Positions 24,290-63,510 of a stretch of 64,000 nt of DNA are shown in pieces. A model generated the notes under the pieces. It did no database searches, was not told where the DNA came from, and saw only the letters and a list, made by a program, of their open reading frames with translations. How positions within the stretch are numbered: the stretch's first letter is position 1; every line of letters starts with the position of its first letter. The DNA is taken from assembly GCA_964270895.1 (NCBI GenBank), contig OZ185440.1; one strand, written 5' to 3'. Both the position numbers and the translations under genes were made by a program. Source of the stretch: Podarcis filfolensis. Lineage: Eukaryota.

Positions 24290-25301
24290 TATTAGGCGAG
24301 ATGGGCCATGGGGCTGACTTGGTGTAAAGCAGTTCATTATGGAGCTTATGGAGGATCCACTACAGATCACCTCTTATCACAGACAAGCCTTGCAGTCCCT
24401 ACACAAAAGACAAATAATACCAAGGGGAAATGACTAAAACGCTTGCACTAATAGAGTCAAACCAAGGCTGTGTTCACACCATACGTTTAAAGCACCGATC
24501 TCCCCTTTCCAAAGAATCCTGGATACTGTAATTTGCCCCTCATAGAACTACAATTCCCAGTAAAGTACTTCATTCCATTCACACACACATCCAACTTAGT
24601 GCTATGTTGAATGACACCCTTGGCTGTCACATAGTTACAAGAGTGCAGTTTTACATTTAGTGGCTTGAATATTTTTATTTTTGCAGTACATATGTAATAC
24701 AGCCTTTTGCCTTAATTCCATTTTGAGCCCTGCCATCTGCTGCCCAAAGCATTTGTTTCACTCTGCTTAAGAGCCATCCCAGCACACCCCAAAGGTAAAT
24801 TTACAATAAGACCTTTAATAGGAAACCTGCCATGTAAAGCCAAAATACTTGGATTTGAGGTGCCTCGGTTACAGCTCAAGTCAAGAGGATGAAAGTGGGC
24901 TCAATCCAAAAATGAGTTTGTAGACTACAGTTTTAATAATCTTTAAAACAAATATTTAACCATACCTCTGGAATCTTCCCCCCCCCACCTTTTCAAGCAC
25001 TTCTCAGCATTGTTGTATTTACTCTTTGAACACTTCATTGTTGGGCAATGTCCTGATGATATCTTTGCTGTATAATTAGGAACTTCCACGCATAAGCAAT
25101 GTACAGGCCTAGCCCAAGTCTAAAGGCATAAAATAAAATGAAGGTCAGTCACGAGATCCCATGCAGCTGCATCATGCAATATGACGACTAGACAGGCCGT
25201 CTTCATTTTTCTCAAGCAACTCAGTAAATATATCTTGAAGAGAAGCGGGTGCCTCCTGATCTAGCAAGCATGCAGCTCACTACAGAATTTGCCTGCAACT
25301 G

Positions 25302-25912
25302 GGTTAGGAGCAGGTGCCAGGAGCAGGTCAGTAACAACTCACACAGTGTCAGTGAAGTTAACTCTTTATTCATAGGAACAAGACAACTCAGGAGCCCAGG
25401 CCCAGAGATCACAGCAACTCTTCCCAGTAGGTCTTGCCCCAATGAGGCATTTGCAAGGACTAAACTACCCTGTCTTCTCACAGCTCCCTAAGTTTCCTCC
25501 TCCCCTGGTTCCTTCCCAAGCAATCTGAGGCTCCTTCATTTTGTCTGTCTTTGCTCCGCCCTCTTCATACTTCACTGGGTTCTGGGAGACCAGGAGAGAG
25601 GGCAGCTGGTCACTGCAGGAGGGGGAGACAGCTTAGCTTCCTCACCAGCCTGACTCATTGCTGCCTCTTGGCTCCTCTCCTCTCTAGCCTCTGCTTCTGC
25701 CTCTGAGTCTAAACTGCTCTCTGCCCCAGCATCTCCCTGTTCACTAAACCCTGTTACCTCTTCAGCTTCCGACACATCCTCCTCCCATTCTGTTCCTTCT
25801 TCTCCCTCTGACCATGTCCCACCACCAAGCCCCTGGCTCCGAGTCTTCTTCCCTTGAGGGTTCCCCAGCCGGTACCTCCCACCAATCCTCTGCATCCAGC
25901 TGGTCCATGAGA
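25302..25912 (-). mobile_element. Solo LTR (611 bp) of an LTR retrotransposon, with a decayed acidic ORF in U3
   Basis: Minus strand starts T(C)TCATGG and ends CTCCTAACC (decayed TG..CA); AATAAA at 25370-25365; 5-bp TSD aactg/aacta; motifs homologous to the LTR at 43218. Confidence 0.72.
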
Positions 25913-28900
25913 AACTAGTAATATAAAGGAATTCAGCACATCTTCTGTTAATTCATTCACATGTTCCAGGGTTGAGTTCTGGCAGAGTTCATTCAAAATA
26001 AGCCTTGTCAAGAAATGAATACGGCACACTTAGATACATGATGCAACACATGCCTACACTGCTGGCCTTAGTTTGACATTGCTTGTTGGGCTGAAAACGC
26101 AGCACCCTCTGTCCACATCAGGGATCATAGCCTTTTGAGTGATCATCTGCTTATCAGAGAATAGGCAGCCCTGAGACTGGTGAAGAATCACAAACATCTG
26201 CCTATGACCTGCAAACCTCATGAGGATTCCCTCCATCTGGAGAACATCCAAGTCACACAATAGGGTCTATCAAAATGAGGTCATGAATTGCTTCAGAAGA
26301 TAGCAGCAAGGAGCAAATGTAGCCCACATCACGAGCAGAATTATTTGCAAATGAAGCTGGCTATAATATAGCTTTTTCTTTTTTTAAATAAATAAATAAA
26401 TAATTGCAATCCATCCTAATTTTTAGAACATTTGCTGGGATTTCCCCGGGGGGGGGGGGGCAGGACACTAGATACTGTCTTATACCACTAGTCCATTTAG
26501 CTTGGGTGTCGTCCGCACTAGCAGTGGAGAACTGGATTTGTGCGGAGCCAGATTCTGACGTCCCCAACTACCAGGGGCCACTTCGACAGGTGGATGGGAT
26601 GACAGGTGGGAGGGTCACTTTGACAGGTGGGCAGGACTATGTCAAATGAAATGTTTTGCTTTGCCCACACAGTTTGATTTCAATCTATGCAGACGAAGAA
26701 AGTCTTTCCCTGCGGAGCGAACTGTAAGCGACCGTCAGCTAATCAGTGCTTACAGCAAATCCCACTTTCAGAAGGGATTAGCTGCACTAAGGAGCTCCCA
26801 GTTGGGAACATTCTGCATGCGAAGCAGATGCTCTGCTGCCGATAGGGAAATCTGTAGTGCAGCTGATCCCTGCATGACTTGCTTGGGGTGCCAACCAGAT
26901 GATCAGTGCTTAACAGCAAGCCTCGCTTTGCCAAGGAGCAATTGGGAGCACACTTTAAGGCTCCCCACTGTTTATTTGCAGCTGCATCTTTACCTGCTCC
27001 ACACCTGATATCACATGTGAACATCACGTGTGGAGCAGATGGACATGGTTCGGAAAGAACAGCCTTACAGGCCCAATTGGGATTCCCTGTTGGGCTTAAT
27101 TTGAGCTGTGGAATAGAGGTCTCCCACTGCTGATCTGCATGGAATGGCAGTGGCTTTTCAGGATTTCAGACACAAATCTCTCCTAGCCTTAACCTGGAGA
27201 TGCCAATAATTGAACCTGGAAGTTTCTGCATGCCAAGCAGATACTCTGCCATTGAGCTATGCCCGTTCCCTGAAGTTTGCTTGCTCTAAAAGTTAAGACT
27301 GCAAGGTACTGATACATTTCCTTTACTGTGTTAGAAAAATGCAGAGGGAAAAGAGCCAAACAGTGTGCCTGAAAGGGCACATGCAACAATTAATGACACA
27401 AACCTCATTCTTTTAATATCTTCAGCCATTTTTCTACACGTTTTAATAGGAACCTTAACATCAAAACAAGTCCTGCTTTCTGCAGGACTTGTCTTCATGC
27501 TTGACAAATGTTTGAAGGAGCTCAAGAGTTTGCTCACACCACTGGTCTCTGAAGCCATATACTCACAAGGTTAGCCACAATCCACATCAATCCTGTCGTT
27601 TCTTGAGACATAGTGTGGTTTGATGAATTTCTCCCAGTGGCGGCACCAGAAAGATAAAAAAGGTGGGTGGTGGTGGGTGGAGAGAGAATGGAAACAGAAG
27701 TGCAAGGCTTGTTTGTGATTAGAGGTATTCCATAGTGAATCACCAACAGAGCCAGCCCACCAATGAGGCACAGGGAACCATCCGCCTCAGGCAGCAGAAG
27801 CACAAGAGGCATCGCCCTGCCTGCCCCACTGGTGCCGCTACCGCTAGAATGTCTTCTGCTGCCCCCCGTCCCCACCCCACCCTATTTTGCATGTAGTCCA
27901 CCCATCTCCAGTCCATCATTGATTCCTTTGCTTATGGCAGAGGCAGCGACAGTGATGGAGAGAAAAGATGGTGTGAGAGGAACATGCAGTGGGGCAGAGC
28001 ACTGTAGATGCCTGTATGGTTTCTCAGAGCATACCTGATGTGGGGCAGGCTCCATTTGCCACCATGAGCGGCTTGACAAGGGGCAGTGGGGCAGTTGCTG
28101 ATGGCCCTCCATAAGCAGCCAATTACAAGGCTTATATAACAAACGTCCTTCTTTGCCCGTTCTTTGTACACCGGACACTTAATCCCAAGGGGTTTTCAGC
28201 CAGTGTTGTGGCCTGTGGTTTAGCATTCAGGATCTTGCATTTCATTGAGAGGTATTACGTGTGCGCATGGATTATCAGACAAATATGACAACCTACCCCC
28301 AGGGCACTCTCGTGTGCCAAAGCATTTAGTCAGTTCTTGCTTAGCTCAGAGCCTATCAATTATGTAAGAATATATTCCAGACCTTGAATAGAAACCTCAT
28401 TGTCCGCTGGTTGTACCATAAAGAGGGCTCCTGAGTCAGACGTAGCTTTTGGCATGCCAGGTGGAGAGAACGGAGCCAGCATTGAGATTTGCACCATTTC
28501 ATAACCATCCCCGTCGCATGCTGAGCTCCCCACACTGCACTTTCCTGTTGCAGCTCTTGAAGTGCTTTTTAAAAAGAGACAAGCATCAAAGCAATTGTGG
28601 GATTTAAAGCACGGAGAGGTGATATGATTTTTCTCATGAGTATTCGCTAGATTGGTCGTAATAGAATCCCAAAGGCTGTACGGTACATTTTCTTGAATTC
28701 CCCAGTGTCTTTTTTTTTTTTAAAAAAAGCTGTGCGACTTTAGATGGTGATGTGAGGGGGGCAGAAGTGGAGCGCACACACACTACAATATTTTCTAGCA
28801 AACCTTTCCATTCCTTGTGTAACTAAGGCCGCATCCATCCAAACACTAATGCTTCAGTGCGTTTTTAAAATCCCACTTTCTTTCACAGAGCACGTGCCAG

Positions 28901-42834: not shown

Positions 42835-43034
42835 TTAATCTTCACCAGAGGGGACGTCATCTTCAGACCCTTCATCCCCAGATTTGTCTGGAGGAGGACT
42901 AACTGATTTCTTCTTTCCTGGAGGACTTTCAGGCTCTTCGTCATCATCTTTTGGGGATGGGGTCTTTTCTTTTGATGTCTTTGAAGCTGTGGGACGGCCT
43001 CCCTTCCCTTTGCCCTTCACTGGACTAGGTGTAA
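42835..43034 (-). CDS. NUCKS1: NUCKS1 exon 8 coding part ([19 protein letters not shown]...SGED*)
   Basis: ttttcttccttcag|TTACACCT...GAAGATTAA, 200 nt to the stop codon; contained in track ORF 42835..43065. Confidence 0.97.
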
Positions 43035-46000
43035 CTGAAGGAAGAAAAGCATCAAAATGTAACAAAGAATCTTACAATTAGTGCTTTTTTTAAAAAAATA
43101 GCTTCTGAGCACATTTTAAAATATGTTTTTCCTTTCTTAACTTTTCAATCTGGTAACGTAGGAATGAAAACGTATTAGTACTATTGAACATAGCTTAAAT
43201 TCCTACAAGATGATGCTTGTCAGGGCCCTGAGAAGTGTGTGGCAGAGGCCCCCTGAGGCTGATCCAGGGGGTGGGGTCAGTGATTTATGGGCTTTTGTGC
43301 CACCTGTGAGGCAGGAGCTTGGTCTGGACCAAGTGTCTGAACAGTCAGAGACAGTGGAAGGGGTGCAGGATGCGTCAGGAGCAGAGGAAGAAACTGTTGA
43401 GAGGGGCAGGCTGGTAGAATCCCCTCCGTCACTTTCCCTGTTGTCTCCCAGGACGGGTTTGAAGAGACAGGCACAGCAGCGATTTCAGTGTAGAAGTCAC
43501 AGCTTGTTTGTGTGTACCCTGTCAGGGAAGGGAACTTAAGTGTGGGTGGAGGCAGGGTCATGTGGACGCAACAGTCCAGCTCAGAGCACAAGCCCGGGGA
43601 AAGAGTACCAGTTATTCAGTTGCCATAAGAGTGTGTGTGTTTGGTGCACCTTAGGAGCTACTCTAGTGCATGCTGTCAGTAAAGAATTAAGCTACTGGCT
43701 GTTTGTCTTCCTTGGGCTTGGTGTGCTCAGGTCAATGCCCAATTCCTCCTAATAAGAACCATATTTTTTAAAATTATTTAAAAGACTTATGAGAGCCTGC
43801 TATTGTGTCAGCAATAAAATGTGCCAGCAGTGAGGCACCCTCTCCCACATCCTTCTTAAAGGTGCCATTAAAACTTTCTTAGAACTGATGCTCACCATCT
43901 TTCTCTTCTGCAAGGGTAAGCAGCCAGTTATGATAAAAGCAAATTTGAAACAGAATGACTTTCACTAAAATACGAAGGCATCACAGGGTTAGTGTAATGT
44001 AAGCTGGGCATGTGGCAATTACATGGTTGTACATACTCCTAAATAATGCACAGCATTTCAAGTGTTGTAACTGATTTTAGGCTGAAAACACAGCCAGCGT
44101 GAATGCATTTATTCTAAAATTCTCCTTCAGTATAGCAACTAAAGGTTGGGAGCACCATCTCTTCCTTTCTCCTAGAATCATGATACATTTGATATTTAAA
44201 GGAACATAACAGTTGGGCATACCCGTTATCCAAGTAATTGTTTAGATAATTTAATCCAAGCCTCCAAAAAAATTTCCACCCACACTGTGCTTACACTTTT
44301 CTTAAGACAAGGTTTAACCAAATGAGTATTTATGCTTTCAGGATGTATGTAGCTTTGGGTACACCTGGAACTGTGCTAAGATTCACCATATTATTTTCAC
44401 GCCTAATGGAAGAAAGGGAATTTATTAGGATTGGTAGGCACGAACATCACCTGTTTTAATCAGCACTGGCAAGTGGTCTGAACACAATACCGGTAACCAA
44501 GAAGTCATAAGAATCCCATCCTGATACAGCCACTAGCTTCTTTGAAATCAGGAGCAATCCATACAAGAACTTTCCAGCAATCAGCTCTACCACATTATAC
44601 AGACTGCCATGTATGTTAATAGGGATAAATTGCTAGTTGAAAATTGATTGCTTCCTATCCTTTCAAGCACAAGAGGTGAAGAGCTGAGAAAACATAAGCA
44701 CTTGCAAGCAAATTTCCATTATGTTATTCCTAACAGGTGCAAAGGGGAAGCAAGCTGAGCTCACCTGTAGCCTTTAGCCTTGGTTTAGGCATTTTCTTTT
44801 CTTTCCTTTCTGGTTTGGATTTCTTAGCCACTTTTTTGTTCTTCTTTTTTGAACTGCCATAGTCACTATCATCATCATCTTCCACAAGGAAGTCTTCATC
44901 GCTGCCAGACTCTTCTGTGCAGAGAGAGAGGAATGAAATGTCTCTAAGAAGGGCTGTCCTTGTTCACTTGGAAGAGAGACAGAATGGGGGAGAAAGTCTG
45001 GTAGGTTGATCAAGGGATAGAAGTCAGCATTCTTGGCTTCTATATCCTGTAACATACTTGCTAGAACTTGGAGAAATCAGGACTTCTGCGCCTCAGTATT
45101 TCCTCATGTAAATCTGCTTTATGACTGGTGACAAGCAGCACAATTATTTAAAACAGCAGTGGCATAGGCATAGTTCTCCTTCCCTCAAGAGCAATTACAT
45201 GGAGGCTCATCCTGACCATTTCCTATGCCAGCTGCTGTAGGTTCTATATGAATTCCCTTCCCAGCCTATGTCTGTTCTCTTGTTCAATATGGTCTTCCAT
45301 CTTGTAGCAAGCTGTAGAAGTGCCCTCGGAAGCAAACACCAGTAACTTATTATATATGGAATAGCAGTAGCTTACTGCTTCCTATAACAGACTTCCAGGT
45401 TTTGAATCCAGATGTCCATGATTCTAGTTCATCAGCTCACTGGGTTTCTCTTGTTTATTTGCACACACTCACAGCAAATATCAAACGGGTCCCCACTTTT
45501 CATCATTTAGAGCAAGGGTATGTCAATTTGCACAACAGACAAGCAAGAAAGCAAAATCTGAGGTGCAGGCATTTTACCACATATTGATTTTTAATTGCTA
45601 ACCATGTACACAAGGGGATTTGAGGCCCTTTACTGTCTCCTGAAGCCAGATAGGATGGTATTTGTAATCAAAGTGGCCTGTTCAGTTTGTTGTCCAGTGC
45701 TGAAGATAAAACAGTGACGAATATGGCAAGTTTGTATCTTACTAATAGAAATATTGACTAAAAGCTCTCCACAAGTCCAAAAAGATTTGGACCCTGAACT
45801 TGAGGGACAGCATTGTTTTCCCTTCCCTCTTTGTTGTCAACAGCCAAGCTGGACACTAAGTACATTAACAATGAAGTGCATTCAATACTCAAGAAGCAGA
45901 AATGTCAAGTTTGCCTACCTTGGCAGCTTAGCCTGGATAGATCAAGCATGGATGTAATTTGTCGAACCCACTCCTATTCTACATTGTGTGTGCCGTTCAG

Positions 46001-49000
46001 TGCCACTTACTTTCCTGAAACGATGCCTCCTCCTCTTCCTGGTCTTCCTCCTCACTGCCCACATCATCCATGAGCATTTCTCGCTGCTTGGAAGCAGCTT
46101 TGGATGCTGCCTGTCGCTGCTGGCGCACATTTTTCTGATCTTCTTTCTCATCCTCACTGTCCTCTGTTATAAAGTCACCAAAGAACACTGAAGATGGACA
46201 GTACAGCACACATTTCCAACTGGGGTAGGGAAGAAACTAGGGGGAAATAAAGGCTTATCTATTCATGACATAATTCAGATTTGCTGAACACGAAACTTAT
46301 CTGAAAGCTTCTAATTTTCAATCATTCTGAAGTTGTCTCCATGCAAAATACCCATCTGTAATGGTAAATAATGGAACACCGAGCACTGGTTAACCTGCTG
46401 CTCTCTACACTGGAAATGGAACTCAGTAGAAGCAGGGCTCAGAAGTGCCTGGCGTGCTCTGGTCCATGGGGTCACAAAGAGTCGGACACGATAAACGACT
46501 AAACAACAACAAGAAGCAGGGCTAGTTTTTACATAACATACTTTTCATTTCCCTTCTCTGGCTCTCTCATCTGAGAAAAGGTAGCAAAGCTTTGTGGATA
46601 AACATCGATTCTTTCTTTCTTTTAAAAAGGGAAGTATAATCAAAATCAGAACCAAGATGCTAATCAAATGAGGACAGAAAAGGATGGATAGAGCCAGGGC
46701 CAGCTCACCCAGGAGGCAAAGTGATGTGACCATGTCAGGCAGCTGGATCCACAGGGGCAGCAGATCCCCATGTAGATCATCATTTACTTGTTATACCTGA
46801 TGTAGATCTTCACTCACCCCTTCTTCCCTGGCGGGGAGGGGCTGCCATTTTATGGTTCACCTCAGGTGCCAAAATGTCTTTGGCTGCCTGGCCCAGGGTA
46901 AAACAATCCCAACCGTCACCAGGCAGCAAGGCACGAGTTGAGCAGCTGATTGGGCATGAGGCTGCCAAGTGATAGTGGTGGGACTGGCTCAGGATCCGCC
47001 ACCACCCCCCAAAAGCATTCTGTTCTGGAGATTTTTGTGGGCACTTCAGCAGGCAGAACACGGAGTTCACCCTTGGAAGAGTGACTTTGCCATAACTCTG
47101 CGATCAGAGGTCTTTTTGAGCTCAGAGGGGGAAGCCTTCCCCAGTACAGCAGATTGTAGGTTTGTGTTGTGGCCTAAGAACAGTTACTGATGAATGTTTT
47201 TTGTTTTAAAAAAATTATTAACTATTTTCACATAACAAATTATTCCAACAATTGTATTTTCCCCCAATTCCCCCCCCCCACGACTTCCCTCAGTTCCTCT
47301 TTCTGGTTTGTTAACATATATTGTTCTTTACATATTATAAAAATGTAAAAATCTCTAAATTATCCATCTATTGTGTTAACAAATTTGTGTATGTTTATTC
47401 AAAACTGATGAATGTTTTAATGTACATCCTTTGGCTGAAGGGACTGTGCTAAGCAGCACAGGCTACAAAAAGCTTTGAAGCAAGTCCAGTGAGGAAGCAG
47501 AATGTGGAATAATATTTATTCTTCAACAAGTTTAGGTATAACTTGACCAGTCTTCCATTCACACACCTAATATGTATGGTTGCTTAGATATGCCAAGTTG
47601 GCTAAATTAAGTAAGAAATGGGTCCTCCCTCAGTTTTCTGAAACAGAATTACCTGAAATTGTCTATGTAAGATGTTATGCTGGTTATGACATGTATTAAG
47701 GCTGCAATCCTAACACCACTTATCTGGGAATAAGCCCTGCTGAATTTGCTCTGACTTACTTATCAGTAGACATGGCTAAGCTTGCACTGATAGGCATTAA
47801 CTGAATCCATAGATACAAATATATTGCAGGAAGCTGAAGTTTAATGTAGGCCAGGTTGCACATATCATTACCTACTGCTTCATGCACAGGGACATCTTTA
47901 GCTTGAGGTCACATCGGAATGGGTCAAATGCCAGTGATGGGTGGAGATTAAAGGCAAAAGTGAGTGGAGCAATGGATATTACTCTTATAGTGGGCTACAT
48001 TTCAGGCAAGCAAAAGCCAGAGGTTTCTATTCCTTCTCCCATACCTCTCCATCCTCTAACATGGAAGCAAGAAGCATCATCACAGTTCAAGGACGTATTC
48101 CACTCAAGAAAGTAGAGTAGAACCAATGAGGGTTGTAGCCTGGGGACAGATTTTGGTCTAGAGAGTGTCTTGAGGGCTAGATAAAGAAGCTCGGAGGGCC
48201 ACATTTGTCCCCAGCACCTGAGGTTCTCCATCCCTGGCTTAATGTGAATGTGCAGGGCACTTCTGCACACTGCTGAAAACACACTTTGTTCCTCCCTTGC
48301 TTCTACTAGGAAACAAACTATGGGCTCACTAGTTACGTCATGTGAATCATACGTCCCTGGTTTTTCTCCAAACACACCATAAATGGTAAACCAAGAACAA
48401 ACTTTGGCTTCTGTTCATGGTTTCTTTGGAGAGGAACAAACCACGAGCCAATACAACAAGCCACAGCACAGCTTGTTTCCCGGAAACATGGCAGAAGCAG
48501 GAGAGGAGAGGAGAAAAGTGAAGTGCCCATGATTTCAGTAGCGTGCACCCAGCACAATGCTCATTCCCACTGAACCATGATTTTAACTATGGCTGAACAT
48601 GACATGCAAACCAAGTCATAGTGAGTTACTTGATTTACACAGCCTTTACCTGCAGCCCTTTTCCTGGATTTGGAAGTTGCTCTTTTGTTCTTGTCAGGTT
48701 TCACTTTTTTCCCTTTTTTGTTCTTCTGAGAACTCTCATAGTCACTATCAGCTTTGCCATCATCTGCTCCTAAGTCATCCTCACTGCCAAAATCTTCATC
48801 TGAGGAAAAAATTGTGATAAAAGTTATTCTTAGCCTTCTACTGCAGGGGAGCACAATCAGAAATGGTAGACTATTCCAGGCTTTAATGCTAAAGACCAGT
48901 GAGCAAGCGCAGAACAAAGGAAAGTGCATTTGATACTGTTACAGACAATTTAGAGAAGAACACAGTCAACATTTCTGAGAGAAGCAATGGCAGGGAAAAG

Positions 49001-61686: not shown

Positions 61687-62859
61687 TTATTATTTGTACC
61701 CCACCCATCTGGCTGGGTTTCCCCAGCCACTCTGGGCGGCTTCCAACAAAGATGAAAAATACACTAAAATGTCACATATTAAAAACTTCCCTGAACAGGG
61801 CTGCCTTCAGATGTCTTCTGAATGTCAGGTAGTTGTTTATCGCTTTGACATCTGATGGGAGGGCGTTCCACAGGGCGGGCGCCACTACCGAGAAGGCCCT
61901 CTGCCTGGTTCCCTGTAACTTGGCCTCTCGCAGTGAGGGAACCGCCAGAAGGCCCTCGGAGCTGGACCTCAGTGTCCGGGCAGAACGATGGGGGAGGAGA
62001 TGCTCCTTCAGATATACTGGACCGAGGCCGTTTAGGGCTTTAAAGGTCAGCACCAACACTTTGAATTGTCTCGGAAACGTACTGTGAGCCAATGTAGGTC
62101 TTTCAAGACCGGTGTTATATGGTCTCGGCGGCCACTCCCAGTCACCAGTCTAGCTGCCGCGTTCTGGATTAGTTGTAGTTTCCGGGTCACCTTCAAAGGT
62201 AGCCCCACGTAGAGCGCATTGCAGTAGTCCAAGCGGGAGATAACCAGAGCATGCACCACTCTGGCGAGACAGTCTGCAGGCAGATAGGGTCTCAGCCTAC
62301 GTACCAGATGGAGTTGGTAAACAGCTGCCCTGGATACAGATTTGACCTGTGCCTCCATGGACAGCTGTGAGTCCAAAATGACTCCCAGGCTGCGCACCTG
62401 GTCCTTCAGGGGCACAGTTACCCCATTCAGGACCAGGGAATCCTCCACACCTGCCCGCCTCCTGTCCCCCAAAAACAGTACTTCTGTCTTGTCAGGATTC
62501 AACCTCAATCTGTTAGCCGCCATCCATCCTCCAACCGCCTCCAGACACTCACACAGGACCTTCACCGCCTTCACTGGTTCTGATTTAAAAGAGAGGTAGA
62601 GCTGGGTATCATCCGCATACTGATGAACACCCAGCCCAAACCTCCTGATGATCTCTCCCAGTGGCTGCATGTAAATGTTGAAAAGCATGGGGGAGAGGAC
62701 TGAACCCTGAGGCACCCCACAAGTGAGAGCCCAGGGGTCTGAACATTCATCCCCCACCACCACTTTCTGAACACGGCCCAGGAGGAAGGAGCGGAACCAC
62801 TGTATGACAGTGCCCCCAGCTCCCAGCCCCTCAAGACGGTCCAGAAGGATGTTATGGTC
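61646..62859 (-). mobile_element. 5'-truncated L2-clade LINE (RT C-terminal half), young but frameshifted
   Basis: GVPQGSVLSPMLFNIY...YADDTQLY...SRLDYCNALY...HWL (ORF 62047..62763) continues after a 1-bp deletion near 62075 as FKVLVLTFKAL...REVFNM* (ORF 61772..62092); (AAT)n tail at 61646-61690. Confidence 0.95.
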
Positions 62860-63510
62860 TAAACTGCACTAGGCCCCCTGGACCATATATCTGTTCTACT
62901 GCTTTTGCCTTTGCAACCTTTATTGTTCTGTTCTGTCCCAGTCTCCCACATATACATTAAACAGCAGCAGGATACAGATTTTACTTTAAAAATATGTTGG
63001 GCATGCTGTGCAGCACAGCACCCGCTAAATATCCACTGTGCCCCCCTACCCCCTTCTTCATTTTTGTCACGCCGATGACACTGGGGAAATGAAGATGGTT
63101 TTCCTGTCAGCCTGTGCTTTGCTGCAGAACATAGCCCACATGTTTCAGCCACAGAAAAAGGCAGTGTGGGAAGGGAGAGGAGTGGCTGAAGGGCAGAGCC
63201 TACCCCTGGATACATTTCATCAAGCTCCACTCGCTGGTGTGGATAGCAAGCAGTGGAATAGCCATGAATTGCCATGAGTAAAAGCCACCACACTATGTGA
63301 AAGTGAGTCCACTATGTATACAGAGAAATCGAACCACACCATACATATACAGCACATAGCTTCCCATGAAGAGTTCTGGGAAGTGTAGTTCACTCCTCAC
63401 AGAGTTATAATTTCCAGAATGCTTAACAAACTATTGCTCCCAGGATTCTTTTCAGTTAAGGCAATGTGCTTGTTACTTACCATGTGGCTGGATGAAACAT
63501 TATCACTATA

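Follow-up and report, generated by a model that had tools for sequence, protein, structure and literature searches.

HIV Nef and MMTV Sag are retroviral proteins encoded in U3, with frames that overlap the PPT and U3 of the 3' LTR. Both are separate genes on spliced retroviral RNAs, whereas the lizard gypsy frame described here is mostly continuous with Pol, and searches of Pfam and of a protein library found no sequence likeness between its product and Nef or Sag. Closer parallels exist in plants. In chromoviruses of CRM group A, coding sequence continues beyond the PPT into the 3' LTR, and the targeting CR motif lies in this part (PMC3059260). The Reina-clade elements Bingo1–4 and 7 have their chromodomain upstream of the PPT and an ORF that extends into the LTR (PMC3605345), a layout identical to that of the lizard sister families presented below. 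These plant elements belong to another clade and another host, and the lizard tail comes on top of a canonical chromodomain. Tf1/sushi elements, which take the 5' end of the element RNA as primer (bioRxiv 10.1101/2022.12.06.519325), resemble the lizard elements in their LTR end motifs, in an LTR related to ours that stands behind an integrase, a Tf2-type SH3 and a chromodomain, and perhaps in self-priming, for which complements of 8–11 nt are present in some sister families. They differ in that here Pol continues for about 80–140 codons into U3 as an acidic-then-basic tail. A Pol running into the 3' LTR is known from plant chromoviruses. The openly accessible literature searched contained no description of such a tail in vertebrate chromoviruses; it may be noted in subscription papers or repeat databases.

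The window, which is the whole 64,000-nt stretch of DNA analysed, contains at 25302–25912 (minus strand) a solo LTR of a lizard LTR retrotransposon, as the earlier note had proposed. From the family ends and a related LTR in another locus (L339, see below), we assign it to an old, high-copy Ty3/gypsy family, likely of a Tf1/sushi chromovirus. It is framed on the same strand by a 5' target-site duplication TAGTT (25913–25917) and a 3' duplication CAGTT (25297–25301) with one mismatch, belongs to a family with TG..CA inverted ends and lacks an internal region. An AATAAA polyadenylation signal (25365–25370, minus strand) lies 3' of the frame, about 65 nt from the LTR's 3' end. The termini of the window copy are themselves mutated, while those of the family are clear.

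A decayed frame of 143 codons (25488–25908, minus strand) runs from an ATG at 25908 to a final stop at 25490–25488, with a change of frame at about 25815; the coordinates given in the earlier note were right. Its product is acidic and Trp-rich, then Ser/Pro-rich, then basic, and likely represents a U3-encoded C-terminal tail of Pol/integrase. Alignment of 38 copies showed that the frame is broken by an 8-nt deletion private to the window copy (25814–25816), that an internal stop at 25572–25574 is present in 1 of 37 copies, and that another at 25536–25538, at the start of the basic motif, is present in 13 of 36 (all on the minus strand). The basic tail (25491–25571, minus strand) has an RS-x-RL motif, for which comparison with HMGN would suggest a role as nucleosome or DNA anchor. 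The RRSLRL previously read there is not in the window sequence as written, since a stop stands at its first place.

A contig of run X1, which may be the source sample itself, spans 25786–26300 with zero differences to the window. Contigs of two other organisms (B and C) bridge the junctions of the window LTR (at its 3' side in X3 and X5, at its 5' side in X4), so that this common insertion is older than their split. The window copy is a dead solo LTR, and the locus itself is ordinary junk.

A second solo LTR, of a different family, lies at 43218–43734 on the plus strand. Read by eye, it starts with TGTCA and is flanked by an ATGCT/ATGCC duplication; it has a similar acidic-then-basic frame. 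A search of the genome returned 167 candidates for it, 40 of which were scored; it has no DNA match to the window LTR, and the parent element of its family was looked for and not found. This LTR sits between Lys/Asp/Glu/Ser-rich exons (about 42870–43050 and 48560–48800, minus strand), which have no Pfam match and which we take to resemble NUCKS1; the window LTR is located about 17 kb past the last coding exon. A LINE reverse-transcriptase fragment at 61775–62868 (minus strand; RVT_1, E 4e-19) was the only thing found when Pfam was run on 69 of the 120 window frames of at least 85 codons.

The window LTR was used for a DNA search of the 1.5-Gb host genome, which returned 4874 first-look candidates. 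Among the 40 that were scored, the 39 copies other than the window copy are 76–80% identical to the window LTR, and the mean pairwise identity within the family is 0.78. Copies start with TGTCA and finish with TGACA, and a 5-bp duplication with 0–1 mismatch flanks 12 of the first 30 loci according to an automatic end-caller that was wrong on several LTR ends, including those of the window copy. These ends, the frequent 5-bp duplication and the level of identity identify the window LTR as a solo LTR of an old and abundant family. The ends also fit the Sushi motifs TGTYANR .. CNTNACA (Table 3 of PMC3601003). Some copies lie in repeated or duplicated sequence. C10:71.4–75.3 Mb and C39 contain a unit repeated more than 30 times, every repeat with a window-family LTR behind the same flank. 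Copy L144 (C2:5.41 Mb) and its neighbours L105, L107, L108, L111 and L118 sit in duplicated genes whose exons, judging by their translation, appear to resemble MHC class I.

To describe the frame at the level of the family, we aligned 38 copies picked by DNA likeness or end patterns (39 were given and one was dropped as short). From ATG to final stop, the alignment counts 429 bases, that is 143 codons in phase, with no codon that is a stop in half of the copies. Such codons number 4 and 5 in the other two sense frames and 4 and 2 in two antisense frames; the third antisense frame is open as well. The nt-5 ATG of the LTR is kept in 22 of 31 copies and the final stop in 29 of the 35 readable ones. 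Fixed stops in a consensus had been named beforehand as a refutation of coding; none occurs in the 38 copies, the internal stops being the minority variants described above and the frameshift being private to the window copy. The same holds for the composition argument. The region is about 67% G+A, and a first-order Markov model of the family composition opens a given sense frame in 82 of 20000 runs (0.4%), at least one sense frame in 231 and at least one antisense frame in 2854; composition therefore accounts for the open antisense frame and not for the 143-codon sense frame, which is real and family-wide.

Databases of known proteins gave little. Pfam has no match for the tail, and a profile search of 1.84 billion protein representatives gave 15 matches, every one a fragment of the window LTR family with no Pol part attached. 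When longer proteins carrying the tail were looked for, none turned up among 898 candidates, which is weak evidence.

We then compared variants shared between copies with those private to few of them. Outside CpG columns, 29 of the variants shared by at least 5 copies are silent and 43 replacing, while the variants present in 1–2 copies comprise 73 silent and 320 replacing ones, a comparison in which recurrent mutation can imitate sharing. For transitions, the ratio is 27:25 among shared non-CpG variants versus 39:125 among rare ones (p=0.0002); transversions show no such signal (2:18, p=0.75), so that the excess comes from transitions only, and it is not significant when sharing is set at 7 copies. 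The silent excess is confined to the phase of the 143-codon frame and is absent from the other two phases. Private indels look neutral (21 of 62 in frame), 3 of the 5 shared indel clusters are in frame, and only 2 of the 38 copies are free of frameshifts. Taken at sequence level, this pattern indicates that the frame was under purifying selection in the source elements and decayed neutrally after insertion.

The parent of the family was sought among gypsy elements of the same genome. Locus L064 contains a gypsy element with Ty3-type gag, RNase H and Tf2-type SH3, and its LTR has a similar acidic-then-basic frame; a search with its integrase returned 2612 candidates. Screening of 60 further chromodomain loci yielded L339 (also L328), where integrase, SH3, chromodomain and PPT are directly followed by an LTR related to the window family. 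This LTR matches the DNA profile of the 38 copies over positions 1–201 (E 1e-15) and 443–605 (E 5.5e-4), is matched by 23 of the 38 copies in blastn, and has a frame scoring 33.6 bits against the family's protein profile. L339 belongs to a decayed sister subfamily, about 70–75% identical to the window family over the first 130 nt, in which several shifts make the phase unreadable. Since a related LTR adjoins integrase, chromodomain and PPT in this locus, the parent of the window LTR family is likely a Tf1/sushi chromovirus of the Ty3/gypsy group.

The exact window family was never seen attached to an internal region (0 of 66, 0 of 10, 0 of 20 and 0 of 30 flanks, some loci being repeated). Patterns combining PPT and LTR start returned 6 solos and 5 matches of other sequence, a 3'-end pattern returned 10 solos, and 20 copies with long open frames were all solos. 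A pattern combining chromodomain end and LTR start gave 78 matches, and none of the 30 screened had a gypsy protein. An apparent LTR pair on C16 turned out to be a tandem duplication. Ty1/copia was rejected as parent: the copia gag next to second-family copies belongs to a nested insertion, which has a 260-bp LTR pair of its own. Chromodomain gypsy elements cluster on the 43-Mb contig C19, possibly a non-recombining sex chromosome, together with nested copia and LINE insertions.

Sister families allowed the relation between Pol and the LTR to be read. In all 4 elements with two intact-ended LTRs, each with 5-bp duplications, the Pol frame continues past the PPT into the 3' LTR and is there in phase with the window frame; its open codons number 341, 904, 1305 and 80 upstream of the LTR and 108, 109, 102 and 57 inside it, respectively. 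One frame of 1407 residues comprises RT, RNase H, integrase, SH3_Tf2-1 and Chromo before the LTR part, and its tail shifts frame midway. The full-length elements that the earlier note had asked for exist in sister families, where Pol lies upstream in phase; for the exact window family, that part of the check came back empty.

From 120 loci, 108 had a chromodomain end and 76 a chromodomain end, a PPT and an LTR start. Among these 76, where LTR starts had been mis-called by eye in L085, L086, L091, L292, L301, L306 and L309, 35 junctions are in phase and 16 and 25 are in the two other phases. When the young family q3 is left out, 27 of 48 are in phase against 8 and 13, counts in which some in-phase loci are duplicates and old singletons show mixed phases. 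Five sister families with linkers of about 40–290 nt are mostly in phase (5/7, 5/6, 3/5, 3/3 and 2/4). L077, L080 and L081 start with TGTCATGG like the window family, and their nt-5 Met is inside Pol and in phase; L319 and L329 start with a D-W-x-E-E-E-W-W motif, again in phase with Pol. The in-phase tails share the layout of the window family, about 20% D/E followed by 30–39% K/R, and three of them have RRSxRL. Their sequences cannot be aligned between families: the protein profile of the window family gave no significant match to other families' tails beyond local shuffles.

The place of the frame within the LTR was estimated from self-priming. A complement to the bases that follow the 5' LTR measures 8–11 nt in L138, L142, L064 and L248, and 0 and 6 nt in L135 and L143. 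In four elements, it is found at LTR nt 287–429, which would make the 143-codon frame nearly all U3. The promoter of a solo LTR would consequently not transcribe the nt-5 ATG, which in sister families would lie some 300–400 nt upstream of the transcript start.

The young high-copy family q3 (for example L179, L182, L189, L208–L237 and L246–L278) gave 2582 candidates with 86–92% identity and a nearly unbroken acidic frame. Its LTR starts with TGTGATG, where the window family has TGTCATG. Its 28 junctions with a chromodomain fall 8:8:12 into the three phases, depending on how long the PPT G-run is, and the 12 junctions of the largest class have a Pol stop that overlaps the nt-5 ATG. The selection test based on silent excess gave no signal in q3. 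The acidic frame ends in RRSARL, exact in 28 of 55 copies. At L238 (C16:27.43 Mb), a q3 LTR is duplicated with its flanks beside an exon that we take to resemble an immunoglobulin light-chain V segment.

According to our analysis, the frame is with good probability the C-terminal tail of Pol/integrase; reading would have gone on from the chromodomain across the PPT and into the 3' LTR. We infer that the window family itself was in phase with Pol, and its nt-5 ATG, placed in U3 that would not be transcribed, is probably an internal Met. The earlier note had placed first a separate accessory protein started at this ATG. That reading loses its leading place, since sister-family Pol reads in phase into the LTR and the ATG is an internal Met in the families that start with TGTCATGG. 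A small protein could still be translated separately if Pol stopped at the LTR border and translation restarted at the nt-5 ATG by stop-start coupling, or if a spliced RNA were used. Termination-reinitiation does occur at overlapping stop-start codons, and such an overlap is present in the largest q3 class; Pol stops at the border in L079 and L083, and most window-family copies have kept the ATG. However, this ATG overlaps the conserved integrase-recognition end, which alone could preserve it, and TGTCATG provides no overlapping stop in the window family. Families with other linkers are mostly in phase, and many families carry the same kind of tail without any ATG at nt 5. The occurrence of all three phases in q3, set by a variable G-run, fits slippage, which is a simpler reading than stop-start coupling. 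Because of the 12 overlaps among 28 q3 junctions, we keep separate translation on the list as an unlikely explanation.

It is less probable still, and in our view improbable, that the frame results from the purine richness of U3 DNA, or that it is a relic of former coding sequence without further importance for the protein. The G+A content, the open antisense frame, the many out-of-phase q3 junctions, the missing selection signal in q3 and the tails that do not align between families would all agree with it. They have to be set against the rarity with which simulations open this sense frame, a silent excess limited to its phase, and the recurrence of the same phase and layout across unrelated LTR families. 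Least of all do we expect the host to have recruited the window copy as a small gene or an exon, for which the chances appear close to nil: organisms B and C do have the insertion in common, but the copy has one frameshift and two stops, frameshift-free copies are rare in the family, and a probably orthologous piece of organism C (1 difference in 78) has no extra letters at the deletion site and a further 9-nt gap. Overall, the observation of the earlier note is confirmed and its interpretation partly supported.

If the frame is the tail of Pol/integrase, the genomic RNA, which ends with U3-R of the 3' LTR, would let Pol extend into U3, giving an integrase whose chromodomain is followed by an acidic spacer, then a Ser/Pro hinge and finally a basic end. 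Such a tail might act as a disordered integrase extension, its basic end serving nuclear import and the anchoring to nucleosomes or DNA beside the chromodomain at integration; by analogy with CRM group A (PMC3059260) and Bingo (PMC3605345), a role in nuclear import and chromatin contact would be the most likely one. In its 5' LTR every copy would acquire the tail a second time, in silent form, and LTR-LTR recombination would leave solos like the window copy.

The nature of the chromatin contact can be approached through the basic motif. Binding to the acidic patch relies on RRSARL in HMGN and on RRSSRL in Dsup, with the R after S-x as arginine anchor (PMC12487698). The tail resembles them by an R-R-S-x-R-L stretch in a disordered-looking protein, and the arginine-anchor position is mostly kept in the window family, where S-x-R-L is found in 27 of 38 copies. 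When the 38 copies are read in register, RRSLRL occurs in 1, xRSLRL in 10 and RRSARL in none; the HMGN core RRSARLSA is absent from the window family, which differs from HMGN by an L at the fourth place and has no other likeness to it. No link between a retrotransposon integrase and the HMGN motif was found in the literature searched. In L067 (4697–6445, plus strand), a copia integrase tail has an acidic stretch followed by RRSQR, the same layout in an unrelated superfamily. By analogy, the basic end might be an anchor for the nucleosome acidic patch, a proposal that we make tentatively and put at somewhat below an even chance. An activation-domain role, also raised in the earlier note, is without support beyond composition. 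A more speculative and rather doubtful model is that, in lizard sushi-type chromoviruses, a U3-coded, HMGN-like acidic-patch anchor on an acidic spacer behind the chromodomain could give the integrase two chromatin grips, while the PPT G-run of at least one young family could act as a switch that decides whether the tail is made fused or as a separate stop-start product.

The lead with most promise is the young family q3 and not the window locus. For annotation, thousands of lizard solo LTRs with a gene-like acidic frame are a trap, as they lead to calls of orphan proteins such as the 15 fragments matched in the protein library. For the elements themselves, our results suggest that annotation of the internal region alone overlooks a long, selected integrase tail of vertebrate chromoviruses. 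If its basic end does bind the acidic patch, this would be a retrotransposon using an HMGN-like anchor for target choice, in parallel to the CR motif of plants.
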